Source: Candidatus Nomurabacteria bacterium (GTDB lineage Bacteria > Patescibacteriota > Minisyncoccia > Phycocordibacterales > UBA918). From it: a stretch of DNA of 64,000 nt. The position numbers and the translations under genes were made by a program. Below, piece by piece: positions 3,933 to 51,981 of the stretch (positions within the stretch are counted from its first letter, which is position 1; each line of letters begins with the position of its first letter). The stretch covers positions 733,366 to 797,365 of the forward strand of contig JACKGF010000001.1 in NCBI GenBank assembly GCA_020632095.1, given 5' to 3'. Under the pieces are notes generated by a model. It was given only the letters and a program-made list of their open reading frames with translations. It did no database searches and was not told the origin of the DNA.

Positions 3933-4019
3933 GGAGGGATGGCTGAGTGGTTGAAGGCGGCGGTCTTGAAAACCGTTAAGGGTGAAAGCTCTTCGAGGGT
4001 TCGAATCCCTCTCCCTCCG
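3933..4019 (+). tRNA. tRNA-Ser (anticodon TGA), long variable arm
   Basis: GGAGGGA TG GCTG AGTGGTTGA AGGC G GCGGT CTTGAAA ACCGT + long variable arm + GAGGG TTCGAAT CCCTC TCCCTCC G. Acceptor 7/7 paired. Confidence 0.85.
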
Positions 4020-4031
4020 CTCGTTGAAAAT

Positions 4032-4055
4032 ACCACCTTTTTGGTGGTTATTTTC
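4032..4055 (+). terminator. Rho-independent terminator after tRNA-Ser
   Basis: accacc-ttttt-ggtggt followed by tattttc. Confidence 0.55.
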
Positions 4056-4210
4056 TTGGGCGGAGGGAAGCAAGCAAATTGCTTTGCTTGCGGGAGGGAT
4101 GAGAAAGACGGAAACATGTCGCACGGAGCGTAGCGAGTACGACAGTTGAGTCGGGGTCGCGAAAAATTTTCACCGAAAATTTATTTGTGACAGAATCCCT
4201 CTCCCTCCTC
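4056..4210 (+). repeat. Copy of a hairpin repeat family shared with the tRNA-Lys locus, containing a tRNA-Ser-derived pseudo-tRNA
   Basis: Perfect 9-bp hairpin GCAAGCAAA-ttgc-TTTGCTTGC (4070-4091), also present at 27352-27373. ggagggatg at 4093-4101 repeats the tRNA-Ser 5' end. gaatccctctccctcc at 4193-4208 repeats its 3' end (4003-4018). gagtcggggtcg...gcgaaaaatt...gtgac is similar to units at 27.4-27.9 kb. Confidence 0.6.
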
Positions 4211-18899: not shown

Positions 18900-20150
18900 A
18901 ACATTTTTTGTTCTCCAAAATGGCCCCGTTGCCAAACTCCACTTTCCACTCTAGCCCTCTCAACCAAAACACTCTCCACTGAATTTTAATTCAGTGGAGA
19001 GTGTTTTGGTTATAATTATGTCTCTTTTTCTTTGTCCAGACCCAGGACTCCCTCGTTCAAGTAGTTTGTGGTATATGAACCAAAGCTTTCTTCAAATTAT
19101 GAACCATCGCCTGCATAAACCCTTGCATCGTCACTTTAGCGTGTCCGCGGTAGCGAGCACGTTTGTTTAACTTGGAAAATACATTCTCAAACGGCATGCG
19201 AGTTTTTGACCGCCAGGAGTTAAGGTCCCTGTCTCGGTCTTTTCGATTATCTTTCTGAATGGTAGCGACGTGACAACCCTGAGCGGTCACCACCTGATTA
19301 GTGAAGTTGGTATCATAGAGCTTATCCATAAAGACCGCTCCTTGTTTCGGTAGGATACTTCTCACAGTCTTGAAATCAGGCACACTGGCATTGGTGACCG
19401 CTGACTTGACGATTAACCCATGACGCATGTCGACAGACAGATGTCGCTTGTGACCAAACCAAATCTTATTCTTAGACTTTGCTCCCCACTTAGCATCACT
19501 GTCAGCTGCGTACTTCTGCACATTGCTGTTGTTCAGCTTCTTTTCTCCATCAGCTAACGCTTTATCTCGCTCTTCCCACAGGGCGGCTTTAGTGATGATG
19601 GTAGAAGCATCAATGAAGGTGAAGACGTTACCAAAGAGACCGTGGGTTTCTAGGGTAGCGTTAATATCTTGAAACATGGTAGCGATGCGTTTGGTGCCAA
19701 TCCGCTTTCTGAGTTTAGAGAAGTATGAAAAGTCTGGAGTGGGGTCAGTTAGACCAAAACCACAGAACCAGCGGACGGCCAGGTTCTCGCGGAGAGCTTT
19801 CTCCATGTTACGGTCACTATAGTCTTCCCAGAACTGGATTAACAAAGCTTTGATGCCTTTCTCAACGTCAATGCCAGCTGCTCCCATAGTGGAATAGGTA
19901 GCGCGCATTGGTTCAGCTAGCGTATTGAAATCAATGATGTCGTTGATGCGTTTGAAGGGGTGGTTCGGAGTAATGATGAGAGCGAAGACTTCAGCTTCGG
20001 TGGAAAGGTTTAACTTAGTGGTTGGGTCGGCTGGAGTCTGCATAATATGGCTAGGATTAAGGGTTAATTGACCATATTATAACATTTTTTGAGGGGGATT
20101 ATTGGTTAGAGGGTGGGGATGATTGGCAACAGGGCCAAAATATCTCCAAC
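18900..20150 (-). mobile_element. IS5-family insertion sequence (~1.25 kb, single transposase); boundaries approximate
   Basis: Imperfect terminal inverted repeats TGGCCCCGTTGCCAAACTCC...CCCTCTCAACCAA (18921-18970) and their reverse complement at 20100-20150. An internal perfect 22-bp-arm palindrome lies at 18964-19009. Single DDE transposase ORF. Elevated GC. Confidence 0.7.
19057..20043 (-). CDS. IS5-family DDE transposase
   Basis: 328 aa. WEDYSDRNMEKALRENLAVRWFCGF N-terminal region and DDE_Tnp_1-like core (FIDASTI..., HGLIV). Size matches IS5-group transposases. Confidence 0.8.
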   Translation of the reverse strand: MQTPADPTTKLNLSTEAEVFALIITPNHPFKRINDIIDFNTLAEPMRATYSTMGAAGIDVEKGIKALLIQFWEDYSDRNMEKALRENLAVRWFCGFGLTDPTPDFSYFSKLRKRIGTKRIATMFQDINATLETHGLFGNVFTFIDASTIITKAALWEERDKALADGEKKLNNSNVQKYAADSDAKWGAKSKNKIWFGHKRHLSVDMRHGLIVKSAVTNASVPDFKTVRSILPKQGAVFMDKLYDTNFTNQVVTAQGCHVATIQKDNRKDRDRDLNSWRSKTRMPFENVFSKLNKRARYRGHAKVTMQGFMQAMVHNLKKALVHIPQTT

Positions 20151-24844: not shown

Positions 24845-26352
24845 TTTGGAATATCAACTCGTTTCACTTTCCACCTATCCCCTTCCTCTACCACAGTCAA
24901 AGATTTAACTTCTCCCTTTGGGGTGTAAACCTTGCCCTCCGCGTGACTCCCTGCACTGACAATATATTTATTATTCCAAACTGCCTGTATTTTAAGCATC
25001 GTGTCTAATTCATGCCAAAGTATTTTTGATTCATGAAACCAGCCGTGAGAAATTGGGTGAGCAACGAACGGCAGGTTAGGACGTTCTTTTAGGAGCGTCC
25101 AAACTCCAGTTGGAGCAACACTCTCAAAACAAAACAAAATCCCTGGTACGTTTTCCGACAAGCTAGATTGGTCTGTATTTGGGCCAACCTGATACGATTC
25201 GCCACGAGATACTTGGTCGATCACATCTCCATAACCGATCAATCGCAATAAACCAGACAAAAAGTAAGAGAGGAATTCACCTTGCGGCACCAAGTATCTC
25301 TTATGAACCTGTTCTATTTTATTCTTTCCCCCAGTGTAGATGAAAGTCTGTAAAAAAGTATTATCCCCTGTATCCACTCGACCACTATCAACAATCACGG
25401 CTGTGGGATTGTGGTATTGAAATTGAAAAAAAGCTTTCACTGCCGCTGGATTGGACCTTTGAGCAAAAAACCGCGCGTCCTCTGGTAACAAAATATAATC
25501 CGGTTCCTCTGTTAGGGCAGCTGTCATCGCTTCACTTAATTCATCCGACATCATAGCTGCGCCACCTTTATCTCGTAAGATATGAGCGGGAAAATTAGTA
25601 TCAATTGTTACCACTTTGTAACCCTCAGCCACCTCTACTGTTTTATTTAAAATTGGTAGATTAGCGGAAACTGACAACAGGATAATAAAAACTAATAACA
25701 CATAGTGATATTGTTGAGTGATAAATTTGGTTAATTTCAATAGACTGATTGCTAACAAAATAAACCCAAAACTCAAACTATAAACACCAGCCATTTTCGC
25801 CACCAACATAAACCATTGATGTTCAGCCAACAAGTATCCACTATAGCCAAAACTAAGAGAGCTATTAATAGTGCCCCCTGGCCCTAAAGCTACAATAGAA
25901 AAAACAATCGAACCAACCACCTCCCCCATCACCCAAGCACTTGGTATCGATAATCCCCAAAAAAAATACTTTGATTTAACTAAGTTTTGTCCATACTGCC
26001 AAGCTAGCACCACCACTATACCGCCCGCCCCTAGACACAAGGAAGCAATCAACCAATATCCGCCAATCAACAACAACTGAACTTTACCTATCTCGACCGG
26101 CAACCAATCAATTGGGTAAGTTGACCAAAACCAGACTGAGGCGAAAGCGGTCTTAATAGTCCAAGCTAACCACGCTCCTAAATAACGAGTTTTTAATGTC
26201 TGGGTTTGTTTTAATAAATATATAAAATAAGCTCCCCCAACAATTCCTAGTACCCAAAGTATTGGAAAAACGAAACCAATTCCGAGTAGAACTCCAGTCA
26301 CAAACCACTGTCCCAAAATACTCTTACTAAACCAATCCATGATACAAAACAA
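24841..26352 (-). CDS. lnt: Apolipoprotein N-acyltransferase
   Basis: N-terminal multi-TM domain followed by a CN-hydrolase domain (…LLPEDARFF…, …LFCFESV…) with the catalytic Cys context. Confidence 0.65.
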   Translation of the reverse strand: MFCIMDWFSKSILGQWFVTGVLLGIGFVFPILWVLGIVGGAYFIYLLKQTQTLKTRYLGAWLAWTIKTAFASVWFWSTYPIDWLPVEIGKVQLLLIGGYWLIASLCLGAGGIVVVLAWQYGQNLVKSKYFFWGLSIPSAWVMGEVVGSIVFSIVALGPGGTINSSLSFGYSGYLLAEHQWFMLVAKMAGVYSLSFGFILLAISLLKLTKFITQQYHYVLLVFIILLSVSANLPILNKTVEVAEGYKVVTIDTNFPAHILRDKGGAAMMSDELSEAMTAALTEEPDYILLPEDARFFAQRSNPAAVKAFFQFQYHNPTAVIVDSGRVDTGDNTFLQTFIYTGGKNKIEQVHKRYLVPQGEFLSYFLSGLLRLIGYGDVIDQVSRGESYQVGPNTDQSSLSENVPGILFCFESVAPTGVWTLLKERPNLPFVAHPISHGWFHESKILWHELDTMLKIQAVWNNKYIVSAGSHAEGKVYTPKGEVKSLTVVEEGDRWKVKRVDIPK

Positions 26353-26788
26353 TTCCCGCGGTCACCGAAACATTAAGTGACTCTTTCTTACCCAACATCG
26401 GAATATCTACAATGGTATCAACAATTTTCAATGTTTCTGCGTCTACCCCACCGACCTCGTTACCAACTATATAAGCAACTTTATCTGGGACAACAAATTC
26501 TTTCAATGTCACAGATTCTGGACACTGCTCAACCGCCACCACTATCACCCCTTCAGCTTGTAGTTTTTTAACTAAATCAGTTGTTTCCGATAAGTGTTCC
26601 CATCCAATCTCCTCACTAGCTCCGAGGGAAGTTTTTGTAATCTCTGCCTGCGCTCGCCCAAATCGATCAACCGGAGTTGGCGTGTACCCAATCAGAAATA
26701 TTTTCTCAACCCCTGTCGCGTCGGCAGTACGAAACATAGCCCCCACATTATAAGCGCTCCGTATATTTTCTAGAATTAGATACTTCAT
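26327..26788 (-). CDS. SpoU-family tRNA/rRNA 2'-O-methyltransferase (TrmL/TrmH-like)
   Basis: LENIRSAYNVGAMFRTADATG ... YIVGNEVGGV ... NVSVTAGIVLY are SPOUT motifs. Confidence 0.75.
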   Translation of the reverse strand: MKYLILENIRSAYNVGAMFRTADATGVEKIFLIGYTPTPVDRFGRAQAEITKTSLGASEEIGWEHLSETTDLVKKLQAEGVIVVAVEQCPESVTLKEFVVPDKVAYIVGNEVGGVDAETLKIVDTIVDIPMLGKKESLNVSVTAGIVLYHGLV

Positions 26789-26959
26789 CCCTGACAGAGT
26801 ACCAAAAGTAAGCCCTAATGACTACTTGGATTGATAAATTAAAAGCCCACGAATCATCATCCCAGACCTTGCACATAAAAAAACGAAATGATAGTGTAAT
26901 AAATGAGCCAGAAGCAACGGCTCACAAGTGCGCAAGCGATAGTTGCGTAAGTTGATAAA

Positions 26960-27165
26960 CGCGCTCACAGGAGAAGAAACTATGAGCAAACACGACGGCC
27001 AAGGGTCCCCGCCCCTGGCCACCCCGACCCTCACGTCCACCACCACCCTTCGTATGGTGCCCTCCGTCGCCCGGACGTGACAAATCAAGGTTCCTGCTTC
27101 GTGCAGGCGTTCATAGACACCTAGCTGACAGGTTAGTCAGCACCCGCCAACAAGCGGGTTTTTCA
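26960..27165 (+). other. GC-rich structured island (~65% GC) ending in an intrinsic terminator; possible ncRNA
   Basis: ggccaagggtccccgcccctggcc...; hairpins cctgcttcgtgcagg and ctgacaggttagtcag; terminator cccgccaacaagcggg plus ttttt (27143-27163). Contains a 32-codon Pro/Thr-rich ORF (26982-27080) that is probably not a real protein-coding gene. Confidence 0.4.
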
Positions 27166-27174
27166 TTACCTTGA

Positions 27175-27202
27175 TTGATTTTATATTCCCTCGTGTTATA
27201 GT
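27175..27202 (+). promoter_or_regulatory. Putative sigma70-type promoter for tRNA-Lys
   Basis: TTGATT (27175-27180), 16 nt spacer, extended -10 TGtTATAGT (27194-27202), ~28 nt upstream of the tRNA. Confidence 0.4.
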
Positions 27203-27230
27203 TTTCCCACTTTGCAATTGCAAATAACAT

Positions 27231-27303
27231 CCGCCCATAGCTCAGACGGTAGAGCAGCAGCCTTTTAAGCTGATGGTCCCAGGTTCGATCCCTGGTGGGC
27301 GGA
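27231..27303 (+). tRNA. tRNA-Lys (anticodon TTT)
   Basis: CCGCCCA TA GCTC AGACGGTA GAGC A GCAGC CTTTTAA GCTGA TGGTC CCAGG TTCGATC CCTGG TGGGCGG A. 7/7 acceptor pairs. Confidence 0.85.
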
Positions 27304-27910
27304 CTCGAGCAAAAAACAAAAACCACGCACCTGCGTGGTTTTTGTTTTTTAGCAAGCAAACTGCTTTGCTTGCGGGCTCGAGTCCGAGGCGGAGCCATAT
27401 TTTTCTGCCCTTAACCTAGGCAGAAAAATAGGTGAGCCGGGGTCGAGAGTACTTACTAGAATTTGAGCAAAGCGAAAAATTATAGTTAGTAACTCGTGAC
27501 GACTAGCCAACCCAAACTGCTTTGCTGGCGGCAGTTGTCCGAACCGCAAGCATGTTTATTGCCCCCTCCTAGGGCAATAAACAGCTGAGGTGGGGTAGCG
27601 AACACTTAGTAGATTTAGCACGAAGTGCATAAATATACTTAGTGATTCGTGACGACTAGCTACCCCAACTGCTTTGCTGGCGGCTCGAGTCCGAGGCGGA
27701 GCATTGTGAGGAGCGCGCCTCCTGGCGCGACGAACTGTGAGCCGGGTGAGTCAGTCTGGGAGACTGACGCAAGGCCTTGCCAGCTACTTTCTGGAGGAAC
27801 GAACAGAAATAGCGACAAGGTGTACAGAATTCGTATAATTAGAAAGCATTTAGTAGATTGTGAGCAGAGCGAAACAGTATACTTAGTGATTCGTGACGAC
27901 ATTATAAAAC
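27304..27910 (+). repeat. Degenerate tandem array (~3 units of ~150 bp) with unit-specific GC-rich hairpins
   Basis: Recurring blocks: aactgctttgct(t/g)g(c)gg(gctcgagtccgaggcggagc) at ~27355, 27515, 27668; ...cttagtgattcgtgacgac(tagc) at ~27488, 27641, 27883; ...gagcaaagcgaaa... Hairpins ttctgcccttaacctaggcagaa and ttattgccccctcctagggcaataa. The first unit carries the same 9-bp hairpin as 4070-4091. Confidence 0.7.
27317..27350 (+). terminator. Rho-independent terminator after tRNA-Lys
   Basis: aaaaaccacgcac-ctgcgtggtttttgtttttt. Confidence 0.7.
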
Positions 27911-27947
27911 CCAACATAATCAAACAATACACATAACTATATACTGG

Positions 27948-28643
27948 TTAATTTTTGACTTTATACTCTAACAAGAGATAGGAATTAGCGAGAGGTTTAG
28001 CACTAACTAACTCTAAAGTTTTAAGCAAAGCCAGATCAGTTTTTACGTGTAATGACTCTCCATCAACTAAGGTTGGTGTACTTTCTCCCCCAATTAAAAC
28101 TGGAGCAACAACTAACAATAATCTATCGATCAATCCTCTTCTAGTCCATTCTGAATTTAGAGTTCCTCCTGTCTGAATAGTCGCCCTCTCGATACCAAAA
28201 TCATTTTTTAATAATTTTAAAGTTTTAGAAAGATCTATCTCTCCTTCATGTTTCAGTATACGGATATTTACGCATTGTTTAACCAACTCAAAAGCAGGAT
28301 GTTCACTATTGTTTGTAACAATGTAAAGAACATCACTCTTACCTGCTAAATATTTAACTCCCGAAACATTGAGATGTGGTTTACTGTCAATTACCACATA
28401 ACTTACTGGCGTTTTTTCTGGTTCGGAGTGTTCGCAATTTACTCCTACTTTTTTTAAAACACGACCAGAATTAATCGAACACAAATCTGTCTCTTGTTCC
28501 AATTTGTAATATTGACCAAGCCCTTCTTTAAGCCCCTCGACCTCTTTAAAATCTAAATCAAAATCTAGAACCTCAGTATCACCTGTTGAAATCTTCCCAT
28601 CTACTGACATTAGAAGAAATAATGTTATGTAAGGTCTTTCCAT
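27948..28643 (-). CDS. RibD C-terminal domain / dihydrofolate reductase-like reductase
   Basis: ITLFLLMSVDGKI N-terminus and LLLVVAPVLIGGE, characteristic of the RibD_C/DHFR-like family. Confidence 0.55.
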   Translation of the reverse strand: MERPYITLFLLMSVDGKISTGDTEVLDFDLDFKEVEGLKEGLGQYYKLEQETDLCSINSGRVLKKVGVNCEHSEPEKTPVSYVVIDSKPHLNVSGVKYLAGKSDVLYIVTNNSEHPAFELVKQCVNIRILKHEGEIDLSKTLKLLKNDFGIERATIQTGGTLNSEWTRRGLIDRLLLVVAPVLIGGESTPTLVDGESLHVKTDLALLKTLELVSAKPLANSYLLLEYKVKN

Positions 28644-28792
28644 AAAAAAAAGTATACTTCATTAGTAATTAAAACCAAATTTTGTTTGCCAAAACCTTGT
28701 TTTCGCAAAAGATTCACAGGACTTTAAGAATCAAAACCAAAACACCTAAACTTCCCAAATCTGCTCATCGGTGTAAACTACGGAGAATTACT

Positions 28793-29383
28793 ATGTCCGT
28801 CTCGCTAGAAAACTTAGAAAAATTTGCTACCCTTTTGCACAAAGTCCAGCGGGTTAAACGCTTTGCGAAGCGTCCTAACGAAAAAGAATTCACCAACACA
28901 GCTGAACACACCTTTGAGGTTGCGATGATGAGTTGGTATATCGCATCGGTGGAAGGTCATGATTTAGATTTTGAAAAAATATTAAAATACGCGCTAGCTC
29001 ATGACCTCATTGAAGCCTACGCTGGTGATACACCAGCTTTTGATACCATTGGTCAAAAAGATAAAGCCAAGCGTGAAGAAGCTGCTATTGCGCGAATCAA
29101 ATCAGAATTCACTGAGTTTCCTGATTTACTAAACATTATCAATTCTTACGAAAATAAAAATGACCCAGAAAGTAAATTTGTTTATGCCACTGACAAAATC
29201 GTCGACCCACTAAATCTGAGCATGGATGACAACCCATCATTTTGGAAAGACAGTAATATTTCTTATCAAACACTCCGCAACTACAAAGACAGCAAAATCG
29301 CTAAAGACCCAACTATCACAAGGATTTGGAAGCTATTAATCGAAAAACTGGAAGTAAATCTAAAACGTTACTTTAATAGTTAA
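28793..29383 (+). CDS. HD-domain phosphohydrolase (YfbR-like 5'-deoxynucleotidase family)
   Basis: TAEHTFEVAMMSW ... ALAHDLIEAYAGDTP (H...HD...D motifs). Start at the internal ATG preceded by GGAG. Confidence 0.55.
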   Translation: MSVSLENLEKFATLLHKVQRVKRFAKRPNEKEFTNTAEHTFEVAMMSWYIASVEGHDLDFEKILKYALAHDLIEAYAGDTPAFDTIGQKDKAKREEAAIARIKSEFTEFPDLLNIINSYENKNDPESKFVYATDKIVDPLNLSMDDNPSFWKDSNISYQTLRNYKDSKIAKDPTITRIWKLLIEKLEVNLKRYFNS

Positions 29384-43580: not shown

Positions 43581-44675
43581 CTACTTATTCATTGGCATTA
43601 CTAAATACCGAAGACTTTTATCGGTTGAACCTTGCATAATTACAGCTCTTCCAATACCAGCAAAACTTAATACGACTGAATCATCATTAATATGAGACAA
43701 AGGATCCATTATGTATTGTTGATTAAAATTAAGAGTTAATTCCTCACCATCAACAGAAGCTTTTAAAGTATCAGTAGTATGTCCAACTTCATTATTTTGT
43801 GAAGAAATAGTCAGATTACTGTCAGTAACAGTTAATGATACCTGTCTGAACTTATTAAGAAAAATATTAGTCTTTTTGAATGACCTAAGTAAGTCATCTT
43901 TTAAAACGGTCACATGAGACACGAATTCCTTAGGAATTATTTGAGCGTAGTCAGGAAAATTACCAGTCACCAACCGTGAAGTAATGTACACTCCTCCCGG
44001 AAAGCGTAGAGCACACTGATTTTCATTAATAACTAAGATAGGATCTTCTCCGATAGAGTCACAAACCTTTGCTAACTCAACAGCGTTCTTTTGAGGTACC
44101 ATTATTGACTGCTCTAAAACTAAACCTTTTTGGGGAATAGTTTTTTCCATCAACCTGAAAGAGTCTGTTGCTACAAAAGTTAAAGAATGTTCTTTTTTTT
44201 GTTGAATAAATACACTCCCTAACTCTGGCTTAATAGAGGTCTGAGAAGCCGAAAATGCCACGCTCTTGATTCCATAAGCAAAAGTCGACCCTTTGATAGA
44301 CAGCTCTTCTCCTTGTAACTGGTGAAGGTTAGGAAACTCATCCACTGAGAAGGTTTTGATAGATGTGCTAGTTGAAACAGTTTCCAATTGAAGAACCTGA
44401 TCCTCTGTTCTAAGTGTCACATCTTTCTGTGAGATAAACTGAATACTTTGTAGAAAAATTTGAGTTGGTACAGCTACTACTCCATCTTCATTAATAACTC
44501 CTTCCACCGGAATCTCAATACTGATTTCTAGGTTGGTTGCTTGAAAAGTAACCTTACCTTCTTTGGCTTCTAACCGAACACATTGAAGAACTGGCAAGGT
44601 CACATGCTTGGTACTTATTCGACTAACAAGCTCTAACGCTTTGACTAGTTGGTTGTGTGGAATAGTTATCTCCAT
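43581..44675 (-). CDS. dnaN: DNA polymerase III beta sliding clamp
   Basis: 364 aa. MEITIPHNQLVKALELVSRI..., three-domain repeat, C-terminal LRYLVMPM. Confidence 0.9.
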   Translation of the reverse strand: MEITIPHNQLVKALELVSRISTKHVTLPVLQCVRLEAKEGKVTFQATNLEISIEIPVEGVINEDGVVAVPTQIFLQSIQFISQKDVTLRTEDQVLQLETVSTSTSIKTFSVDEFPNLHQLQGEELSIKGSTFAYGIKSVAFSASQTSIKPELGSVFIQQKKEHSLTFVATDSFRLMEKTIPQKGLVLEQSIMVPQKNAVELAKVCDSIGEDPILVINENQCALRFPGGVYITSRLVTGNFPDYAQIIPKEFVSHVTVLKDDLLRSFKKTNIFLNKFRQVSLTVTDSNLTISSQNNEVGHTTDTLKASVDGEELTLNFNQQYIMDPLSHINDDSVVLSFAGIGRAVIMQGSTDKSLRYLVMPMNK

Positions 44676-45029
44676 ATATTTTTAATTAATCTATTTTACT
44701 CTCTATTATTAGGGGTGTGGAAGTGTGCAAAAGTTGAAAGTATGGTGTGTTTTAAAGTCCTCTCACCCAGGGTCTGATGTAAATAACTGGGGGTTGGTTT
44801 GGGGTAGTTGAGGATAGAGCTGGGGATAGGATTTTTGATAATATTAATTTGTTGATAAGTCATCGTGAGAAGGTTGGTTTTGGACAGCTTATCCTAAGTT
44901 GTATACAAAATTACTAACAAGGTTTTGGTTACTAATCCACAAACTATACATAGAATATGTGGATACATCATAACAAAAATCTTGGTAAAAAACTTCCGTC
45001 TAGACGGAAGTTTTTTACCAAGATTTTTG
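44676..45029. promoter_or_regulatory. oriC segment between dnaA and dnaN: DnaA boxes, G-tract region and a 54-bp perfect palindrome
   Basis: DnaA-box-like 9-mers TTATCCTAA (44889-44897), TAATCCACA (44933-44941), TGTGGATAC (44958-44966). Palindrome aaaaatcttggtaaaaaacttccgtc-ta-gacggaagttttttaccaagattttt (44975-45028) abuts the dnaA stop. Confidence 0.6.
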
Positions 45030-46460
45030 TTATTTAAGGAGTAGTCTAACTTGAGTAATCTCTTCTTCCAGTTCTCCATTATGTTTCAACTCCCCTTTTA
45101 TCTTCTCGCAGGAGTGAATAACGGTAGTGTGGTCGCGACCACCAAGTTTTTTACCGATAGCTGGATATGAAACTTGAAAATCTTCCCTAAGAATATACAT
45201 GATAATTTGTCGTGGTTTTACTACTTCCTTACGGCGAGTCTTTTCGTATATGCTGGCTTGGTCAATATCGTAATAACGAGCCACTTTTTCTACCACATCG
45301 GTAATAGCGAGAGTTTTTCTTGGGCGAGAACTATTTTTGATAATTGTTCTAACTTCTTCAATTGAAAGGGTGCGACCAAGGAGTTGTGATTGACACATAA
45401 TGGTGTTAAGGGCACCTTCTAGTTCGCGTACATTACCTTCAATACTCTCAGCTAAGTGATCGACTACGTCATCACTAAGGACAATGCTGTTCTGAGCTGA
45501 TTTTGCACGTAGGATAGCTGCTCTAGACTCAAGGTCGGGAGCAGGTAGGTCAACAATCATCCCTTGGGCAAAACGAGACTGAAGTCTTTCTTCCATTCCG
45601 TTTAGTAAAGCGGGATGTTGATCACTAGAGAAAACAATTTGTTTGTTGTTGTCGTGGAGAGCATTAAAGAGGTGAAACAGTTCTTCCTGCGTCTTTTCTT
45701 TGGTAGCTAAGAATTGAATGTCATCCATGATCAATACATCATATTGACGATACTTATCTTTAAAGTTGTTGGCTGTACCACTTTGGAGAGCATTAAAGTA
45801 ATCGACGGCAAATCGTTCGCTGGTAACATAGAAAACTTTCTTACCAATCTTCTTGATATGGTTCCCTACCGCTTGGATAAGATGGGTTTTACCGTGACCA
45901 GTTTTTCCATAAATAAATAATGGGTTATAAGTGATACCTGGTTTTTCACTCACTGTTTTAGCAGCAGCGTGAGCTAAGGCGTTGTATGGTCCAACCACAA
46001 AAGTGTCGAAAGAATATTTTGGGTTAAGGTTATCACTCTTGTTTATATAATAGTCTTCTAGGGGTAGAGCTGCGTTAACAGTTTGGTTTTTAGTTGACTC
46101 TTGTTTTTTATCGTTTCTTTGGGCAACCGTATATTCAACACTTCTGACATGAGGAGTAAGGTCACGAAGAGTTTTAAGGATCATGGTTTGAAACTTATCT
46201 TGTAGCCAGTCTTTAACAAACACACTTGGTACTCCAATAGTGGCAGTACCGTCTTCTAGGGCAACGATATGAGTATCTCTAAACCAAGTTTTGAAGTTGG
46301 CTGTAGTAATAGAAAGTTCTATTTTCACTAACGCATCATCCCAAAGTTGTTTTACATCGACTTGTTCAGTATGAACAATACTGTTGTGTGAGGATTGATG
46401 AGTGTGAGTTATAGAAGAATTCATAAAGTTAGATAGATTCGCCCCAAAATCTTGTAGCAA
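45030..46460 (-). CDS. dnaA: Chromosomal replication initiator DnaA
   Basis: Walker A GKTGHGKTHL, Walker B VLIMDDIQF, sensor and box VII motifs, C-terminal DnaA-box-binding HTH (GGRDHTTVIH). The true start may be an internal Met. Confidence 0.9.
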   Translation of the reverse strand: MLQDFGANLSNFMNSSITHTHQSSHNSIVHTEQVDVKQLWDDALVKIELSITTANFKTWFRDTHIVALEDGTATIGVPSVFVKDWLQDKFQTMILKTLRDLTPHVRSVEYTVAQRNDKKQESTKNQTVNAALPLEDYYINKSDNLNPKYSFDTFVVGPYNALAHAAAKTVSEKPGITYNPLFIYGKTGHGKTHLIQAVGNHIKKIGKKVFYVTSERFAVDYFNALQSGTANNFKDKYRQYDVLIMDDIQFLATKEKTQEELFHLFNALHDNNKQIVFSSDQHPALLNGMEERLQSRFAQGMIVDLPAPDLESRAAILRAKSAQNSIVLSDDVVDHLAESIEGNVRELEGALNTIMCQSQLLGRTLSIEEVRTIIKNSSRPRKTLAITDVVEKVARYYDIDQASIYEKTRRKEVVKPRQIIMYILREDFQVSYPAIGKKLGGRDHTTVIHSCEKIKGELKHNGELEEEITQVRLLLK

Positions 46461-46622
46461 TTTGCATTATACTCGTGCTAGAAAAACTGTAAATATTTTC
46501 CCTCTAAATTTGGAATATTGAAACACTTTTTGGAAATAAAAAAATGCAACTGTGAACAAACTGTGGATAACTTTAAGGCTGCTTTTAAAACATCACTTGC
46601 CTATTGAAATATTTATTTATTC
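46461..46622. promoter_or_regulatory. oriC / dnaA promoter region with a perfect DnaA box
   Basis: TGTGGATAA at 46563-46571, plus the partial box tgtgaacaa just upstream. AT-rich. Confidence 0.55.
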
Positions 46623-46658
46623 ATGTATAGTTCTGACTGTAATAAATCTATAACTATT

Positions 46659-46808
46659 ATGCCAAAACGAACATATCAACCAAGTAAGCGAAAACGCGCA
46701 ACTACACACGGTTTTTTGGTGCGTTCTGCCACTGCTTCTGGACGAAAAATCGTTCAAGCTAGACGGCGAAAAGGTCGCGCTCAACTAACTGTAAAAAAAG
46801 CTCAATAG
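46659..46808 (+). CDS. rpmH: 50S ribosomal protein L34
   Basis: [22 protein letters not shown]...RRRKGR is canonical L34. Start at the ATG at 46659. Confidence 0.9.
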
Positions 46809-46829
46809 AGCTTTTTTTGTTGTATAGTA

Positions 46830-47168
46830 TTGATTATGTTTAAAAAGGCAGAAAGGTTAACTAAAAAACAGTTTGATAACTTTTTTAAAACCGGAAAACG
46901 TTTCCAGTTTCAGCACCTAACTATCATTTATTCTCAACACCCTTCCTTACACGCTTCAGTGGTGGTTGGTAAGAAGGTTTCTAAACAAGCGGTACGTAGA
47001 AATGCTTTAAGACGGCGAATTTACGCTCGTTTGCGCAGTGAAGTTAAAGCTAAAGATTCCATAGGAGTTTTTATTGTCATAGTAAAACCCACCTATAACG
47101 CTATTGGTCGAGTAGCAGCAGATGAGTTTCTGACAGCGTCAATTGCCGAGACTATAAAAAATACGTAG
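46830..47168 (+). CDS. rnpA: RNase P protein component
   Basis: RLTKKQFDNFFKTGKRF...VVVGKKVSKQAVRRNALRRRIYARLR (RNR motif). Confidence 0.85.
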   Translation: MIMFKKAERLTKKQFDNFFKTGKRFQFQHLTIIYSQHPSLHASVVVGKKVSKQAVRRNALRRRIYARLRSEVKAKDSIGVFIVIVKPTYNAIGRVAADEFLTASIAETIKNT

Positions 47169-47180
47169 AATACACCCACT

Positions 47181-47906
47181 ATGAATTATATTTGGCACAC
47201 GTTCTTTTTTGACCCAATTTACAACGCGCTAGTTTTTTTTATTGATGTTATCCCAGGTGGTGATGTGGGACTAGCTATTATCGCTACTGTCTTAGTGGTA
47301 AAAACCATTCTCTTGCCAGTTTCTATTAAAGCCGCTAAAACTCAGCGAATAATGAAGGAGCTTGAGCCTAAACTAAAAGAGATTAAAGAAAAACATAAAG
47401 ATGATAAGCAGGTGCAAGCTCAAGCGATGATGCAAACTTACAAAGATGCGGGAATGAATCCTTTTGCCAGTATTTTCTTAATTTTTCTTCAGCTCCCAAT
47501 TATTATTGCTCTATACTACTCAGTCTCAAGAGGAGGAGGAATTCCTTTACCAGAAATAAATACGGACTTACTTTATTTTTTTGTAGAAACTCCAGTTAGG
47601 GTAACAATGGACTTTTTGGGAATGATTGATATTACAGGTAAGAGTGTCTTATTGGCGCTTGGTGCGGGTGTGACGCAGTTTATCTACATTAACCTGTCGA
47701 TGCCCAAGTTACCACCTAAAGAAGAAGGGGCGGAGCCAAGTATTAAAGATGACTTCATGCGCAATATGCAAACTCAAATGCGCTACGTAATGCCGGTTTT
47801 AATCACCTTCGTCGCCTACTCTATCTCCGCCGCTATCGCTCTCTATTTCCTTGTTAGTAACTTAACCATGATTGCACAAGAGTTTTATGTAAAGAAACAC
47901 CGGTAG
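47181..47906 (+). CDS. yidC: Membrane protein insertase YidC (short Oxa1-like form)
   Basis: Conserved TM1/TM2 with ILLPVSIKAAKTQRIMKELEPKLKEIKEKHKDDKQ...MMQTYKDAGMNPF...LQLPIIIALY. Confidence 0.85.
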   Translation: MNYIWHTFFFDPIYNALVFFIDVIPGGDVGLAIIATVLVVKTILLPVSIKAAKTQRIMKELEPKLKEIKEKHKDDKQVQAQAMMQTYKDAGMNPFASIFLIFLQLPIIIALYYSVSRGGGIPLPEINTDLLYFFVETPVRVTMDFLGMIDITGKSVLLALGAGVTQFIYINLSMPKLPPKEEGAEPSIKDDFMRNMQTQMRYVMPVLITFVAYSISAAIALYFLVSNLTMIAQEFYVKKHR

Positions 47907-47974: not shown

Positions 47975-48754
47975 TTACTTATATTTGGTGCAGGAGACAA
48001 TCCCGTTGTACTCACGAGCCTCTGCTTCTCCTCCAGCTCTTTGACAAGCTTTCATAGCGGCAGTACAGTCGTATGTATTATTTCCAACAGGGTCAGTTCC
48101 TGTAAGGAGACAATCGAATGTACTCGGTCGTTTTTTAGCTGCTCGTACAATACAGGTGCCTAGTTGATCGCTGCCGGGTGGTGGTGGAGTATATTCTCCT
48201 TGATAACAAGCTGCTTCAGGATTTGGTGAAAATGGGTTGTAGTTAGAAGGGCATCTGCCAGGCACAACATTTTCACAAATATTTTTTGCTTCTGCCGCAT
48301 CTCTAATAATACCGGATCTCAAAGGCATAAATTCATCTCCTAAGGGTAGCGAAACAGGGCTACTGGTAGTTATAACACGTGGCGAGCTTGGTATTGGGAT
48401 CGGGTCAAAGGTTACGTTAACATTATTTATGTCTGGATTGATGACAGTTATTATGATTACAGCCGCTAGGATTACCAATAACCCTAGTACAGCACCTTGA
48501 ATATCTTTCTTAGCAGACCCTTTGTCGGTAACAACATCAGACATCATCCACTTAACTCCAGCAATTACTATTTTAATTACCGCCAGGAGAGCCGCAATAC
48601 TGATTGAGAGAGCGTACAGAGCGTTCATATACGCGTCAAATCCCGAGTTAGGATTTACCCCAGGGATACCCACCAAAGGAGTATAACCAGCAGCAAAAAT
48701 TAAGGAAGGGGCGGCTGCTAGAATAAAAACGATTATTGTAATGATTTTTTTCAT
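47975..48754 (-). CDS. VirB2/TrbC-like pilin with a C-terminal cysteine-rich extension
   Basis: Signal peptide MKKIITIIVFILAAAPSLIFA, then two hydrophobic helices separated by a short charged loop (ALYALSISIAALLAVIKIVIAGVKWMM / SDVVTDKGSAKKDIQG / AVLGLLVILAAVIIITVI), the TrbC/VirB2 fold. Then ~120 aa with 10 Cys and PPPP. Confidence 0.45.
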   Translation of the reverse strand: MKKIITIIVFILAAAPSLIFAAGYTPLVGIPGVNPNSGFDAYMNALYALSISIAALLAVIKIVIAGVKWMMSDVVTDKGSAKKDIQGAVLGLLVILAAVIIITVINPDINNVNVTFDPIPIPSSPRVITTSSPVSLPLGDEFMPLRSGIIRDAAEAKNICENVVPGRCPSNYNPFSPNPEAACYQGEYTPPPPGSDQLGTCIVRAAKKRPSTFDCLLTGTDPVGNNTYDCTAAMKACQRAGGEAEAREYNGIVSCTKYK

Positions 48755-48764
48755 GATAATTAAG

Positions 48765-49973
48765 TTACTCAGTTTCTGGTAAAGGTTGTAATCGCTCAAA
48801 CATCCAGAGGTTTTGGTTGTTTTTGTTTACAAAGTAAATATTTACATCATCGTGACCAAACTGTAGGTTGGTTATGTCCAAAGACTGCCCACTTTCTGAT
48901 TGGGTGTTTGACAAGGAAGAAACCCCTTGTTCAGTCATTTTCGATTCCCAGAGGTTATCAGATAAATTAACCTCACCACTATACCAAGTGTCCGGAGTTT
49001 CTCTGTTGTAGGTGTTTGGTGTTTCAGCACATACCACTAGAGAAGAAGTGTTTTCACTAAAGGCACATTTTTCAGGAATAACAGTAATAGGAAATTCAAC
49101 GTAATCATTATATTCATGAAGGTAGAGATATGTTTGGTATCTTTCCTTGTCTTGTCTACTAAACACGACCCCGCTCTCATTTCCTTCAGCGGAAAGACCA
49201 AAACCATCAATTGGCAGACGACTAACCTTTCCTCCTTTTATCTCATATAAAAACCCTTCTAGTTTACTGCTAGCTTTCGGGTAGGCGAAGTGAGTATCCT
49301 TTTCTGTTTTTCCCCAGTCAATCACTGCTTCACGGAAAGGGATTGTAAATAAGTCTTTAGAGGTTTGTTTTACTGGGTCAAATGACTTACCGATAACCGA
49401 TCGGTCAGTTTTAACAGCATACAAAAAAGTGTTGTCAGTAGTAGCTTTAAAGCTGATAATTGGTTCAGTTATAGTGTAGACACTAGAGTCGCTTGAAGAG
49501 GCCGAGTCAAGTTTTTTGATGTTGTATTCACTACTAAAACCGCTACCGGACTGAATCATTACGTATTCACCATCTAAAGTAATGCTACCTTTTTGGCTGC
49601 TTGGGAAGGTGGTAGCTGATACTCTCTCTTCTTCCCCACTAGTTAGGTTAATAGAAAAAACGTGTCCCGTACCAGCTTCGATATAGTAGACAACAGGGGT
49701 GGAAGAAGCGTTTTTCATTACTTCACGGTAACCAATAATTGGTTTGGTAGTGAGTTGACGAAGTCTTTTAGAGGTAGAAACATTCACTGTTGGTTCATTG
49801 TCTAATGTAGGTTCTTCATTAATGATTGATGTGTCAGTAGTGTCGCCAATTGATAGGTCACCAAAAACCTCGTCAACATTCTTAGGTGTGCCAAAAAATA
49901 AAACCCATATCCAGATAGCGACTAGGATAATTATTAGTACTACTCCAATGACGATAAATACTGTGCGTTTCAT
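48765..49973 (-). CDS. Hypothetical membrane-anchored secreted protein (putative secretion-system component)
   Basis: N-terminal TM (VFIVIGVVLIIILVAIWIWVLF). Ser/Thr-rich, predicted beta-rich ectodomain. Confidence 0.35.
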   Translation of the reverse strand: MKRTVFIVIGVVLIIILVAIWIWVLFFGTPKNVDEVFGDLSIGDTTDTSIINEEPTLDNEPTVNVSTSKRLRQLTTKPIIGYREVMKNASSTPVVYYIEAGTGHVFSINLTSGEEERVSATTFPSSQKGSITLDGEYVMIQSGSGFSSEYNIKKLDSASSSDSSVYTITEPIISFKATTDNTFLYAVKTDRSVIGKSFDPVKQTSKDLFTIPFREAVIDWGKTEKDTHFAYPKASSKLEGFLYEIKGGKVSRLPIDGFGLSAEGNESGVVFSRQDKERYQTYLYLHEYNDYVEFPITVIPEKCAFSENTSSLVVCAETPNTYNRETPDTWYSGEVNLSDNLWESKMTEQGVSSLSNTQSESGQSLDITNLQFGHDDVNIYFVNKNNQNLWMFERLQPLPETE

Positions 49974-49977
49974 AATA

Positions 49978-50943
49978 CTAGAAGTTTATTAGAATATTAC
50001 TCTGTGCCCCTTGTAAAATTTGTTTGGTGTCTCGAACATGAAATTGAACGCTTGATTGTCCGAAGGTTCCTGTTCTCTGTAGAGTGACTTCATACGGGTT
50101 CCCTCCAAAATCAGTAGATTTATTACCATTAACTTTCCATTCTTTAATATCTGGATTGTTGTAGACCCGAGAATCAAGGTTGTATGGTTCAGCGCGCACG
50201 GTCACACTATTACCGATTAGAGATAAGTTTTTAGCGATTGGTTTTTGGCTGATACCGAATAGAGAGCTAACTTCATAAAAATGTACTTCCGGTGCAACAG
50301 AAGGAATACTGACCGCCCTTTTTGCTAAAACCACCCCTCCAGGTTCGGTTACTTGTAGGTAAAGTGAACTATAGTCGCCGATTGGGGTGGTAAAAGAGAT
50401 TTGATTTCGACCCCTAATTGGCCCACCTTCAAGAACTTGGTTGTTTAGTCTCCAAGTGTAAACAAGGTCAGAATCCCTAAATCCACTATCGCTCACCAAC
50501 GCAGTAGCGTTAACAATACTACCAATACTTGGTAGTGAACGGCCGAGATAAAAGTCTGGGGTTCTGGTTTGAGGTTCGATGATTATGTCTAAGTAAATAG
50601 GATTGATGGTATTTTGTAGAATCACTCTAGAACCCTGAGGTGTATTTAAGACAACTTTAATATTTTGAGTCTTACCAGCTTCTCCTGCTATTATTTTTAC
50701 TTCTCGTTGATTTTCCGCTTCTTCAATAACTTGATCATCTAACAGCCAAGTAATTTTAGATCCGTAAGTGCTTCCTTGATAGTCTTTGAGGGTGGCTGTG
50801 ACTTCTTCACCAGGTCTTGGATATTCTGGTTTAGTTTCGATGGTTGACTCAGGGTTGGTAAGTGAATTTGTGTCCAATTGAGCTAGCGCTGGGGAGGCGC
50901 TTAAGCTGACTATGGTTATTAAAAATATTATTAGTGTCCTCAT
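49978..50943 (-). CDS. Hypothetical secreted protein with repeated beta (Ig-like) domains
   Basis: Signal peptide MRTLIIFLITIVSLSASPALA. Internal repeat ...ITW/YTW...L(D/N)(D/N)QV(I/L)E... Confidence 0.35.
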   Translation of the reverse strand: MRTLIIFLITIVSLSASPALAQLDTNSLTNPESTIETKPEYPRPGEEVTATLKDYQGSTYGSKITWLLDDQVIEEAENQREVKIIAGEAGKTQNIKVVLNTPQGSRVILQNTINPIYLDIIIEPQTRTPDFYLGRSLPSIGSIVNATALVSDSGFRDSDLVYTWRLNNQVLEGGPIRGRNQISFTTPIGDYSSLYLQVTEPGGVVLAKRAVSIPSVAPEVHFYEVSSLFGISQKPIAKNLSLIGNSVTVRAEPYNLDSRVYNNPDIKEWKVNGNKSTDFGGNPYEVTLQRTGTFGQSSVQFHVRDTKQILQGAQSNILINF

Positions 50944-51034
50944 ACCATAATCATACCAGACCATAAGACACAAGAGCCCAGTTTAGTGCGTTTGTTTGGG
51001 ATATCTCCAAACACCATAAATTAATTATCCAAAT

Positions 51035-51967
51035 TTATTTTGGTCGTAACCAAATAATCATAGTCCAAATCATAAACCAAGGAAGTAAGTTTAGGACTGG
51101 TGTAAAGTATCCAAAAAAACATAGTATAAATACAAAAATCTTAATACCAGAGCTTTTACCTGAAATCGGTTCAAAACCATTTAGTTTGTATATGAGATAA
51201 ATAATTAAAAGCACCGCTATGCCGAATATAAATATTATTAACTCAGTTACCATAAAAAGATTAATAGGGTCAAGGACTGATACATTGATTCCAAATACAG
51301 CTTCCGAAATCTTTCCTGCCACTTCAAGTAGACGACTGGCGGCATAGTGAATACCTTTATATAAAAAATTACTGTTAGGGTTTGGAGTAACAATTTTTTT
51401 AATTGAGTCAAGAGCGCCAGCCAGAGCGAAAAAAACAATATTTAACAAAGCAAAAGGTAATTGAAATAGAAACCAGGAGGGTATTGCCCACGACCAAATA
51501 CTACCAGTCACAGTGGTTGCACGACCCCGCATAAGAAGCGTGGCTGAGGTACCCTTTATTGATAATTTACCAGACTTAAGTTTTTTAGGGGTGACTATTG
51601 GTTGGGTTGAATAGGTTACATTGGCTTTTCTGGTTGTTTCCTCAGAGCGATTTATTTGCTGTACAGGTTTATAGGGGTTATTTTTAGGGTCTTCTATAGA
51701 TGAGGGTTGTAAACCTTGTTTTGCGTAAGAGGCTTGGAAATTCTCATGGGTAGGGGTAATAGAGCTGGTGGGTTGTTGTTTGGTTGGTGAACCAGGCGTA
51801 TTTGAAGATCGGGTGGTTTCCGATCTAACGTTTCTTACCTCTTGTCCGCTTGTTGCACTAGAAGAATAAGCTAGGGTCGGGCGAGTTCCTGGTCCGTATT
51901 TAGGGTCGTTAACCGCTTTTGGGTATCGCTCACTATATCGCTCATCTTTTTTTTGCGGAACCGCCAT
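51035..51967 (-). CDS. Hypothetical polytopic membrane protein with a disordered N-terminus
   Basis: ~150 aa S/T/P/Q-rich N-terminus, then four or more TM helices. Confidence 0.35.
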   Translation of the reverse strand: MAVPQKKDERYSERYPKAVNDPKYGPGTRPTLAYSSSATSGQEVRNVRSETTRSSNTPGSPTKQQPTSSITPTHENFQASYAKQGLQPSSIEDPKNNPYKPVQQINRSEETTRKANVTYSTQPIVTPKKLKSGKLSIKGTSATLLMRGRATTVTGSIWSWAIPSWFLFQLPFALLNIVFFALAGALDSIKKIVTPNPNSNFLYKGIHYAASRLLEVAGKISEAVFGINVSVLDPINLFMVTELIIFIFGIAVLLIIYLIYKLNGFEPISGKSSGIKIFVFILCFFGYFTPVLNLLPWFMIWTMIIWLRPK

Positions 51968-51981
51968 ATACTAAAAGTATA

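Follow-up and report, generated by a model that had tools for sequence, protein, structure and literature searches.

Integrase-borne islands that reside at tRNA and transfer-messenger RNA (tmRNA) genes are marked by repeats of the tRNA 3' end that run from the T-loop onward. Partial tRNA genes arise from the integration of elements, and the tRNA gene fragments that integrating elements leave behind (PMC9897764), as well as the group I introns of patescibacterial tRNA genes (PMC13011429), are the nearest descriptions in the literature to what we report here for a stretch of 64,000 nucleotides from a Candidatus Nomurabacteria bacterium (assembly GCA_020632095.1, contig JACKGF010000001.1, positions 733,366 to 797,365; hereafter the window). 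In this window, a tRNA-Lys gene is followed by an array of three diverged units that share a conserved fold. These array units belong to a large family that in Patescibacteria stands directly behind tRNA and tmRNA genes, on the strand of the gene, and each closes its fold with a helix made from the 3' end of the gene behind which it stands. A full-text literature search, in which subscription journals were thinly covered, gave no description of this family, and within that coverage we rate it as a new kind of element.

The array lies in a 1160-bp gap between genes for a SpoU/TrmH methylase (26327-26788, - strand) and a RibD_C protein (27948-28643, - strand; Pfam assignments), behind its host gene, tRNA-Lys(UUU), at 27231-27304 on the + strand (ARAGORN; Rfam tRNA model, 67.7 bits). 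A first-pass annotation of the same DNA had described a 1.1-kb tract without credible coding sequence; the gap is real, but a possible open reading frame (ORF) of 32 amino acids (aa), MSKHDGQGSPPLATPTLTSTTTLRMVPSVART, stands behind an AGGAG site at 26982-27080, 5' of tRNA-Lys and outside the array. Behind tRNA-Lys, a perfect 19-bp hairpin with an A-tract and a T-tract (27311-27350, both strands; 100% complementary by inverted-repeat search) looks like a bidirectional intrinsic terminator, drew terminator-like stems and nothing else as sub-threshold Rfam matches, and is part of a long palindrome that spans from the end of tRNA-Lys to unit 1. Three tandem units, copies of a non-coding element of 120-190 nt, then follow on the + strand (27351-27503, 27504-27656 and 27657-27900), of which the first two are intact and the third is interrupted by another element. 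The repeat search recovered a 59-nt block three times (73-80% identical, spacing 153 and 244) and a 33-nt block three times (spacing 156 and 152), which agrees with the three diverged units of about 150 bp that had been noticed behind tRNA-Lys. CTGCTTTGCTKGCGG has three exact copies in the array, with a one-mismatch copy at 4079 behind tRNA-Ser(UGA), and TTAGTRAYTCGTGACGAC also occurs three times; shuffles of the window never matched either count. The copies have diverged too far for Tandem Repeats Finder to report an array here. Compared with its shuffles, the tract has a much stronger fold (z = -10.5 for the + strand, -9.0 for the - strand), and a terminator scan within 27351-27900 returned no terminator-like site.

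Unit 1 opens with hairpin P1 (27352-27373, located in the sequence and by inverted-repeat search), which reads GCAAGCAAA-CUGC-UUUGCUUGC as RNA and GCAAGCAAA-ctgc-TTTGCTTGC as DNA; this is the perfect hairpin that had been singled out at the start of the array together with its loop-variant twin behind tRNA-Ser at 4070-4091, both of which are present. It is followed by an "anti" segment, GCTCGAGTCCG (27376-27386), complementary to the 3' end and trailer of tRNA-Lys, whose GUC (27382-27384) doubles as the 5' strand of the closing helix H0. The three-way-junction core of unit 1 extends over 27381-27503 (84.6 bits, E = 5e-18, with R1, the covariance model described below) and consists of H0 (27382-84/27501-03), H1 (27388-90/27436-38), P2 (27394-27433), H3 (27442-44/27498-500) and P3 (27447-27495). 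Unit 2 begins with a leader at 27504-27535 that has no terminator of its own and holds a degenerate copy of the tRNA end and trailer (TAGCCAACCC), a degenerate P1 (CAAA-CUGC-UUUG, GCCA/UGGC) and an anti segment; its core follows at 27536-27656 (R1, 73.0 bits, E = 3e-15), with H0 formed by GUC 27537-39 and GAC 27654-56. The leader of unit 3 and the 5' half of its core, comprising the H0 5' strand, H1, P2 and GAGCCGGG, occupy 27657-27746 (partial R1 match at 27688-27764, 19.2 bits), and its anti segment GGCTCGAGTCCG is identical to that of unit 1. The 3' half lies at 27842-27900, with a long-form P3, GUGAC at 27893-97 and the terminal GAC at 27898-900 (partial R1 match at 27840-27896; 80% identical to unit 1). 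Between the halves, a diverged module of a second kind ("type A") is nested at 27747-27841; it aligns over its full length with type A units of three other contigs (L009, L025 and L055; L numbers denote the loci collected for comparison), contains the hairpin CAGUCUGGGAGACUG (27752-27766) and the 3' motif GGUGUACAG-hairpin-AGA, and has an exact 15-mer in common with L009 units A and C, L025 and L011. Unit 3 is thus an ordinary unit split between GAGCCGGG and P3 by a type A module, and its length is explained by this element nested at about 27747-27841. All the elements that the first-pass annotation had placed in the tract were found in the sequence where it put them, and its building blocks are present in the units, but its register was off: the string ctgctttgct is the loop and 3' arm of P1, and its ggctcgagtccg segment is complementary to the tRNA 3' end together with the trailer.

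The core was defined by lining up 16 copies collected by hand from the window and related genomes, and R1 was built from these. Two sets of loci were then searched, all or nearly all of them from Patescibacteria, and the taxonomic reach shown is that of Paceibacteria-like genomes. In a set of 83 loci that was not selected by motif (the window, its relatives and about 80 loci gathered via SpoU), R1 gave 34 matches, 30 of which have a same-strand tRNA (Lys, Ser or Arg) 40-400 nt upstream; within the 64-kb window itself, it found no copies beyond the tRNA-Lys array and the tRNA-Ser locus. Among metagenome contigs, a DNA pattern of three motifs matched at least 120 loci, and R1, run on the first 100, reported 125 copies scoring 24-82 bits. 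Because these loci were picked by the family's own motifs, their motif content is circular, but their position beside tRNAs, their flanking repeats and the copies found by the model only are not. Of the 125 copies, 94 follow a tRNA on the same strand at a distance of no more than 350 nt, compared with an expectation of 5.6 (P ~1e-98). The host tRNAs carry about 40 anticodons, covering 19 of the 20 amino acids (Phe is missing), and several further copies stand behind tmRNA genes (L240, L250). The suspicion that this is a dispersed, tRNA-associated repeat family is therefore well founded for many Patescibacteria, and the additional copies and their conservation in relatives do not bear out a random local duplication. 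One copy in L168 lies behind an apparently intron-containing tRNA that was missed by ARAGORN, with a group I intron about 230 nt upstream, and a search for RNA genes upstream of units without a detectable tRNA (L219, L223, L184) found none.

Collections of RNA families, phages and plasmids gave no counterpart. In Rfam 15 (4227 models), only tRNAs reach threshold in the window, so that no confident match to a known RNA exists, and permissive searches (E<=10 on 26700-28100; E<=5 on the arrays of L009) gave just chance terminator-like or miRNA-like matches. Units 1 and 2, compared by BLAST with 50,697 phage and 72,556 plasmid records, matched none of them. The three-motif pattern matched 58 times in viral contigs, all at or below 17.5 bits with R1, and these matches are chance occurrences in GC-rich DNA.

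The core is a three-way junction in which all helices are nested, and it is preceded by P1. The closing helix H0 (GUC/GAC in the tRNA-Lys units) leads to the junction strand CGA(A)AG. Helix H1, of 3 bp (G-X-C with G-X'-Y), lies inside the invariant strings CGGAG and GAGNNGGGG and is joined by a GGA/GA internal loop to the variable hairpin P2. After the junction GGG, the GUC of GGGGUCG pairs with the GAC of GUGAC to form H3, within which stands the hairpin P3, with a bulged A, a conserved A.A or C.A pair and, in its long form, ACUUAGUA/UACUUAGU. CGGAG, GAGNNGGGGUCG and GUGAC are the conserved motifs of the family. P1 precedes the core in most members, its loop being nearly always CUGC; its stem varies freely, and the stems of relatives differ yet pair (for example GCGAGTGAC/GTCACTCGC and GCACCTGCC/GGCAGGTG). 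In the set of 16 copies, 87.6% of cells pair, compared with 66% in shuffles and 32-46% when the partners are slid, and the covariation score is 0.565 versus 0.18 for shuffles and about 0.1 for slid partners. For the 125 metagenome copies, the corresponding share is 86% versus 63% in shuffles, in an alignment that was fitted to R1 and is therefore biased towards the structure; changes on both sides are found at 23 of 26 pairs. Leaving out the special A.A/C.A site, there are 107 G.U pairs to 28 A.C pairs, so the folding strand is the tRNA-sense strand. Units are about 70-190 nt long and have no ORF, and the core keeps a GC content of 38-75% in contigs of 31-64% GC. Hairpin tips that recur in the family are CUGC (in P1 and the terminators), AGCA, GACG and GC-GNA-GC (such as GCGAAGC and GCGUAGC). 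The GC-GNA-GC type is an unusually stable mini-hairpin in DNA, which keeps open a reading in which the folded strand is single-stranded DNA.

How the fold is closed depends on the host gene. In what we call shell units, which include most metagenome copies and the tRNA-Ser copy of the window, the core is followed directly by a copy of the host tRNA 3' end, from C56 of the T-loop to the end of the gene, and the complement of this block, interrupted by P1, precedes the core, so that an acceptor-like helix of 7 bp and a T-like helix run straight into the junction. An exact repeat of upstream sequence of at least 12 nt (range 12-43, mostly 19-23) stands directly after 53 of the 118 units that could be scored and after none in the shuffled control; in the examples inspected, the repeated block starts at the T-loop C56. 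The 5' strand is a complement and not a copy, since a TTCAAGT T-loop is answered by CUUGA (which pairs with CAAG in L210). Because it is the complement even where the T-loop is non-palindromic, this strand forms a helix rather than one side of a target-site duplication, and a duplication of the T-loop as target site was ruled out on the same ground. Bare units, such as those behind tRNA-Lys, repeat just the nucleotides of tRNA positions 72-74 (G-A-C in the tRNA-Lys array, G/C-A-C across the family), and the 5' strand is complementary to the tRNA end and trailer, which for tRNA-Lys are the last 5 nt and a 6-nt trailer (27300-27310, CGGACTCGAGC). Covariation between anti segment and trailer is seen in L023, L029 (agatgc/gcatct) and L014 (agacgc/gcgtct), while the spacer of L209 is a palindrome over its entire length. 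The base that precedes the terminal AC of a unit (GUGAC-G-AC or GUGAC-C-AC) tracks position 72 of the host tRNA and pairs with a 5' GUC or GUG. The sites that tell whether the 5' strand tracks the upstream tRNA or the downstream copy number just three or four.

The shell unit of the window stands behind tRNA-Ser(UGA) (3933-4020, + strand; ARAGORN and Rfam) and its terminator (4027-4054), and spans 4058-4208 on the + strand (R1, 56.6 bits at 4100-4194). It is composed of an acceptor-like helix (4062-68/4202-08), P1 (4070-4091, the twin of the unit 1 hairpin, with loop ttgc), a T-like helix (4094-4100/4195-4201) and the core (4100-4194), and its 3' block (4193-4208) repeats tRNA-Ser 4003-4018 without a mismatch, a stretch that runs from T-loop to acceptor end. 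The same architecture recurs in dozens of metagenome copies. The third tRNA of the window, tRNA-Arg(GCG) (3128-3200, - strand), has no core behind it; its terminator is followed by GTGCTCCTGC (3085-3094, - strand), a near-complement of its own 3' end, which leaves a minimal palindrome of tRNA end, hairpin and anti segment. All three window tRNAs thus have a common layout of 3' end, A/T-flanked terminator hairpin and complement of the 3' end (27300-27386; 4010-4068; 3085-3137, - strand), and these long palindromes would compete with the acceptor stem.

Comparison of related genomes reveals gain, loss and exchange of units. Orthologous tRNAs often have no unit, and presence is patchy among close relatives: nothing stands behind the tRNA-Lys terminator in L006, L011, L016 and L017, whereas L009 has three units of a related kind, L015 two and L014 one that resembles those of the window. 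L009 and L015 share 220 nt (terminator, unit, terminator) at 99.5% identity, compared with 88% for the genes on both sides. L009 has one extra unit at the tRNA-proximal end relative to L015, and the third unit is swapped for a different type of module, with a sharp break directly after a shared "anti-acceptor" strand. In L242 (reverse strand, 722-989), a unit is found behind a protein gene, for a topA-like zinc-ribbon protein. The 3' end of that gene, stop codon included, is present as a direct repeat of 90 nt (91% identical) that flanks the unit; the 5' strand of its closing helix is complementary to the start of the repeat. We considered the two copies of this repeat as the template and variable regions of a diversity-generating retroelement and, from a comparison of their sequences, rejected the idea, the differences between them not being confined to adenines. 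A recent burst of copying was likewise rejected, because no pair of type B units at least 94% identical was found between different organisms; the sole pair at that level, L193/L204, represents overlapping contigs of one organism. The type A modules form a second family in the same tRNA-derived shell (L009 9300-9830 versus L015 3330-3826), as does the core of the window units. Their junction reads UCGAAG, CUUUUG/CAAAAG closes one arm, and they also have the motif GUAUACUG and a hairpin whose loop is GUA(A). In L006 (9850-9925) and L011 (9830-9910, - strand), the promoter and the real tRNA-Lys are separated by a degenerate 5' half of that tRNA, which is interrupted by a hairpin of the CAGUCUGGGAGACUG type, as in type A units and unit 3 of the window.

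Of the explanations that had been offered for the tract, a mobile element acting at tRNA 3' flanks fits best. We give about an even chance to the reading that the units are non-autonomous, structure-dependent insertion cassettes that target the 3' ends of tRNA and tmRNA genes, by a mechanism that we infer. The cassettes would integrate by recombination at the 3' end of the gene, which would stay intact with its end duplicated, as with integrase-borne islands. A folded single strand, either RNA from read-through that starts at the strong tRNA promoter or single-stranded DNA, would present a copy of the target duplex in the closing helix, beside a conserved structural handle that may be recognised by a factor encoded elsewhere. 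We favour this reading because of the repeats that run from the T-loop to the gene end, the use of tmRNA genes as targets, the repeat at a protein gene, the extra unit at the proximal end, the swapping of units and the nesting of one in another. As to non-autonomy, a scan of window ORFs of at least 100 aa revealed no integrase, reverse transcriptase or HUH enzyme in the 64 kb, and the gene tables of L001-L012 list no recombinase domain. A factor that recognises the fold is suggested because the repeat sits in a hairpin stem by the conserved junction, recalling the folded sites of integrons and CTX phage.

Several observations weigh against such cassettes. No excised form, no empty-site allele within one population and no mobilising enzyme was seen; on excision and re-integration, the evidence is indirect and consists of an insertion or deletion, a swap and a near-identical cassette in diverged genomes. 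Insertions and deletions bounded by a repeat of 19-23 nt can arise by ordinary unequal crossing-over. The argument from near-identity and horizontal transfer comes from one genome pair and concerns a type A unit, not the type of the tRNA-Lys array, and the protein-gene target is a single example (L242). Fitting both strands of the closing helix to more than 40 targets needs a mechanism that the reading cannot specify. Within one genome, no close copies are seen among the units at different tRNAs, whose hairpins differ even on one contig, which speaks against a recent burst. Five contigs of the present organism from different samples (including GCA_020428725.1) are identical or have at most 2 mismatches over the region that each covers. 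Finally, unit 1 is colinear with the unit of the orthologous tRNA-Lys in L014, L026 and L029, at 68-73% identity, the same as that of the flanking protein genes, which suggests long vertical residence under selection in place, something a purely selfish element would not predict. Considering this colinearity together with gain, loss, swapping and nesting, the elements are both long-lived in place and exchangeable.

A stronger version of the cassette reading, which we regard as unlikely, is that the element is a self-addressed mobile cassette, in which the closing helix sets the integration site and the junction is either a handle for a recombinase encoded elsewhere or itself catalytic. By analogy, this would amount to programmable, structure-guided integration without an element-encoded enzyme, with a logic partly like that of the folded attC and CTX sites and partly like that of guide-bearing transposon RNAs. 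A variant of this version draws on geometry: GUGAC, with which the core ends on its 3' side, abuts C56 of the paired tRNA 3' segment, as would be left by strand transfer into the T-loop between U55 and C56.

The main rival, which is possible though we hold it less probable than the cassettes, is that the units are accessory structured RNAs tied to tRNA biology and transcribed by read-through of the terminator, a form of the small-RNA family that the first-pass annotation had considered. Under this explanation, shell units would mimic the "top half" of a tRNA, with the acceptor/T-stem 3' strand and discriminator of the host and a three-way junction replacing the T-loop; RNase P, RNase Z and the CCA-adding enzyme would excise them, and the junction would bind a partner, while arrays and losses would come from ordinary recombination between repeated tRNA ends. 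This rival is a serious one considering the strong covariation, the conserved unpaired nucleotides of the junction, the conserved A.A/C.A pair and GGA/GA loop and the G.U bias of the transcribed strand, and it also accounts for the strict co-orientation with highly expressed tRNA and tmRNA genes, for acceptor-like (7-bp) and T-like helices built in the host's own sequence, for a core that stays GC-rich whatever the contig, and for unit 1, which is kept in place as well as the neighbouring protein genes and is colinear in distant relatives. However, a terminator-like hairpin stands between tRNA and unit in most examples inspected, both window loci among them, and no promoter came to notice where the array begins. 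N73 and C74 are likewise paired with the 5' strand in the examples read, and this strand makes a perfect long palindrome together with the end of the real tRNA, unlike a substrate of RNase P; the three tRNA-Lys units have no tRNA-like shell at all. Neither the 90-nt repeat of L242 nor the swapping and nesting of units is predicted, and presence among close relatives is patchy. The readings considered here are partly compatible, as a mobile element could have been put to host use.

It is quite unlikely that the units are instead a cis-acting device of the tRNA 3' flank, serving as a back-up roadblock, a processing site for RNase III or another enzyme, or an insulator for terminator read-through, with the pairing to the tRNA 3' end being part of 3'-end maturation. 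Their fixed position directly behind the terminator would suit such a device, as would the palindrome of tRNA end, hairpin and complement that all three window tRNAs have even where the core is missing, and the array does separate tRNA-Lys from the convergent gene. On the other hand, the many orthologous tRNAs without a unit mean that it is dispensable, tandem and nested copies would add nothing, and neither in the window nor in the metagenome examples that were read was the closing helix seen to be followed by a U-tract. A unit also stands behind a protein gene with a repeat of coding sequence, and a three-way junction conserved in sequence exceeds the needs of a roadblock.

Still less probable, and in our view very unlikely, is that conventional integrase-carrying islands or prophages, integrated at tRNA genes and deleted again many times over, left the units behind as decayed attachment-site scars; scars had also been proposed for the tract. 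Direct repeats of the tRNA 3' end from the T-loop on are the classic mark of such integration, tmRNA genes are targeted as well, and the flank of tRNA-Lys in the window gained two genes, for an HD-domain and a RibD_C protein, relative to related genomes. Scars, however, should decay rather than keep a 100-nt core with compensatory changes and conserved junction nucleotides across contigs of 31-64% GC, which disfavours this proposal. In loci with genes examined, no integrase or island gene lies beside the units, and the searches of phage, plasmid and viral sequences gave no match, the 58 viral pattern matches being at chance level. Finally, the tract does overlap with ORFs of 48-95 aa, and in the output of one pipeline a 95-aa gene spans the tRNA. 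Nevertheless, a protein-coding tract or a chance local duplication without wider meaning has scarcely any chance of being right and was rejected as refuted, given no Pfam match for the two array ORFs tested (27649-27936, + strand; 27660-27932, - strand), compensatory variation in the stems, hairpin length differences that are not multiples of three, and more than 150 homologous copies elsewhere.

The surroundings of the array deserve a brief account. Homologues of SpoU assign the window to Candidatus Kaiserbacteria, within Patescibacteria/CPR. The gene order PolA, 233-aa gene, tRNA-Lys and SpoU is kept in relatives. In the window, the genes for the HD-domain (YfbR-like) and RibD_C proteins (27948-29383) are inserted between the 233-aa gene and the array, whereas in L006, L009 and L011 the 233-aa gene directly adjoins the tRNA-Lys flank without them; this insertion makes the flank of tRNA-Lys a hot spot for the gain of genes too. 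Upstream of the tRNA-Lys promoter, a GC-rich stretch (26895-27168; about 54% GC versus about 38% around it) has a fold z-score of -3.5, contains the 32-aa ORF and a terminator at 27142-27159, has no Rfam match, and is missing in L006, L009 and L011. The public 95-aa gene call mentioned above (L004 2-289; window 27111-27398, - strand) runs antisense across tRNA-Lys, its terminator and the unit 1 hairpin, and is a spurious ORF of the type that GC-rich units invite. In L078 (2869-2942) and L035 (55-128), ARAGORN labelled the SpoU-linked tRNA "tRNA-Stop (tta)"; judging from its anticodon loop, CTTTTAA as in tRNA-Lys(UUU), the L078 call looks like an artefact of register. The sole transposase-like gene of the window encodes a DDE transposase (DUF772 and DDE_Tnp_1; 19057-20043, - strand) and has no evident tie to the units. 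dnaN, dnaA, rnpA and yidC (43581-47906) mark a replication origin region near 46.6 kb, which is adjoined by a cluster (47975-59138) with type IV secretion system pilin, TraG/VirB4-like and PrgI domains; if replication starts near 46.6 kb, tRNA-Lys and tRNA-Ser would run head-on to it.

Patescibacteria have some of the smallest and most tightly packed of all bacterial genomes. In the sampled loci, which were chosen for carrying the element, about half of the tRNA genes are nevertheless followed by 100-600 bp of it. If the units are cassettes, they would be elements without a gene of their own whose address is copied from the target, which would explain how change comes to be concentrated at tRNA flanks and might lead to a recombination enzyme or ribozyme of a new kind. 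If they are host RNAs, a major part of the bacterial tree, in which, to our knowledge, almost no non-coding RNAs are experimentally known, would gain an abundant new class of them, linked to tRNAs. The model R1 also marks regions that gene callers now fill with spurious ORFs.

Finally, we compared the family with described systems, beginning with those that are farthest from it. An intrinsic terminator, namely a GC-rich hairpin with a U-tract, is matched by the hairpin at 27311-27350 before unit 1 and not by the units. Several known RNAs were considered and set aside: the CUGAUGA/GAAA core of the hammerhead is absent by eye, the strand lengths of the GGA/GA loop are wrong for a kink-turn, GGGUGGNACCGCG is only loosely similar to a T-box, and the Rfam models for 5S rRNA and Y-RNA do not score the units. 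Small ribozymes (hammerhead, twister, pistol, hatchet and those resembling that of hepatitis delta virus) gave no Rfam match at E = 10. The Intron_gpI model had no match in the window, while the same search did detect the group I intron of L168. Class C group II introns are, like the units, inserted just behind intrinsic terminator hairpins in one orientation; the units, however, are about ten times smaller and have no Rfam group II score, the window has no reverse-transcriptase domain, and group II introns have been reported absent from Patescibacteria (PMC13011429). The omega RNAs of IS200/IS605 and the bridge RNA of IS110 also have a structured scaffold followed at its 3' side by about 20 nt that match the insertion target, but here the neighbourhood is free of TnpB, IscB and IS110 recombinases, the "guide" is engaged in pairing in cis, and no Rfam match was obtained. 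tRNA-like RNAs (the tmRNA domain, mascRNA, YrlA and viral tRNA-like structures) share with shell units the acceptor-like and T-like helices, the host 3' strand and the discriminator. They differ in that the units replace the T-loop by a junction, have no D-loop partner or anticodon arm and extend the helix through N73-C74; bare tRNA-Lys units have neither helix, and none of these RNA families gave an Rfam match, the models for tRNA and tmRNA included.

Miniature inverted-repeat transposable elements (MITEs) and the small repeats REP/BIME, Correia, RUP and BOX are, like the units, small, non-coding, multi-copy, hairpin-rich, intergenic and without an enzyme. Unlike MITEs, however, the sequences read show no terminal inverted repeats or target-site duplication of fixed length, and no related autonomous insertion sequence was identified, the sole one in the window being an unrelated DDE element; the ends of the units are target-derived, with repeats from 3 to 90 nt. 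The units are also set apart from the small bacterial repeats by their strict site and orientation at tRNA and tmRNA 3' ends and by a core conserved across every lineage sampled.

In its workings, the family most resembles tRNA-targeting integrative elements and the cassettes of integrons, and it departs from both in the features that define them. Integrase-borne islands and prophages similarly target tRNA and tmRNA genes, leave the gene intact, place a repeat from T-loop to gene end (about 17-25 nt) at the far side and accrete in tandem. The units, in contrast, measure 70-190 nt rather than kilobases, a size smaller by two orders of magnitude, have a conserved folded core and no integrase or other gene, and also carry the complement of the repeat, which places the repeat in a hairpin stem; bare units repeat just 3 nt. 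With integron cassettes and their attC sites, and with the attP of CTX phage, the family shares an imperfect palindrome as a site that acts as a folded single strand. It also has arrays of short cassettes beside a fixed site, a stem whose structure is conserved more than its sequence, one favoured strand and, in the single comparison of L009 and L015, an extra unit at the proximal end of the array. Nevertheless, neither IntI nor attI was found (the window has no integrase, and the array abuts a tRNA), no link to Xer emerged, and the sequences read contain no GTTRRRY/RYYYAAC boxes. In the units, moreover, the stem is copied from the local tRNA and differs at each locus, and what is conserved is a three-way junction instead of extrahelical bases. 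The strand-biased, single-stranded fold that the family has in common with attC is therefore to be taken as a likeness in workings, not as membership.

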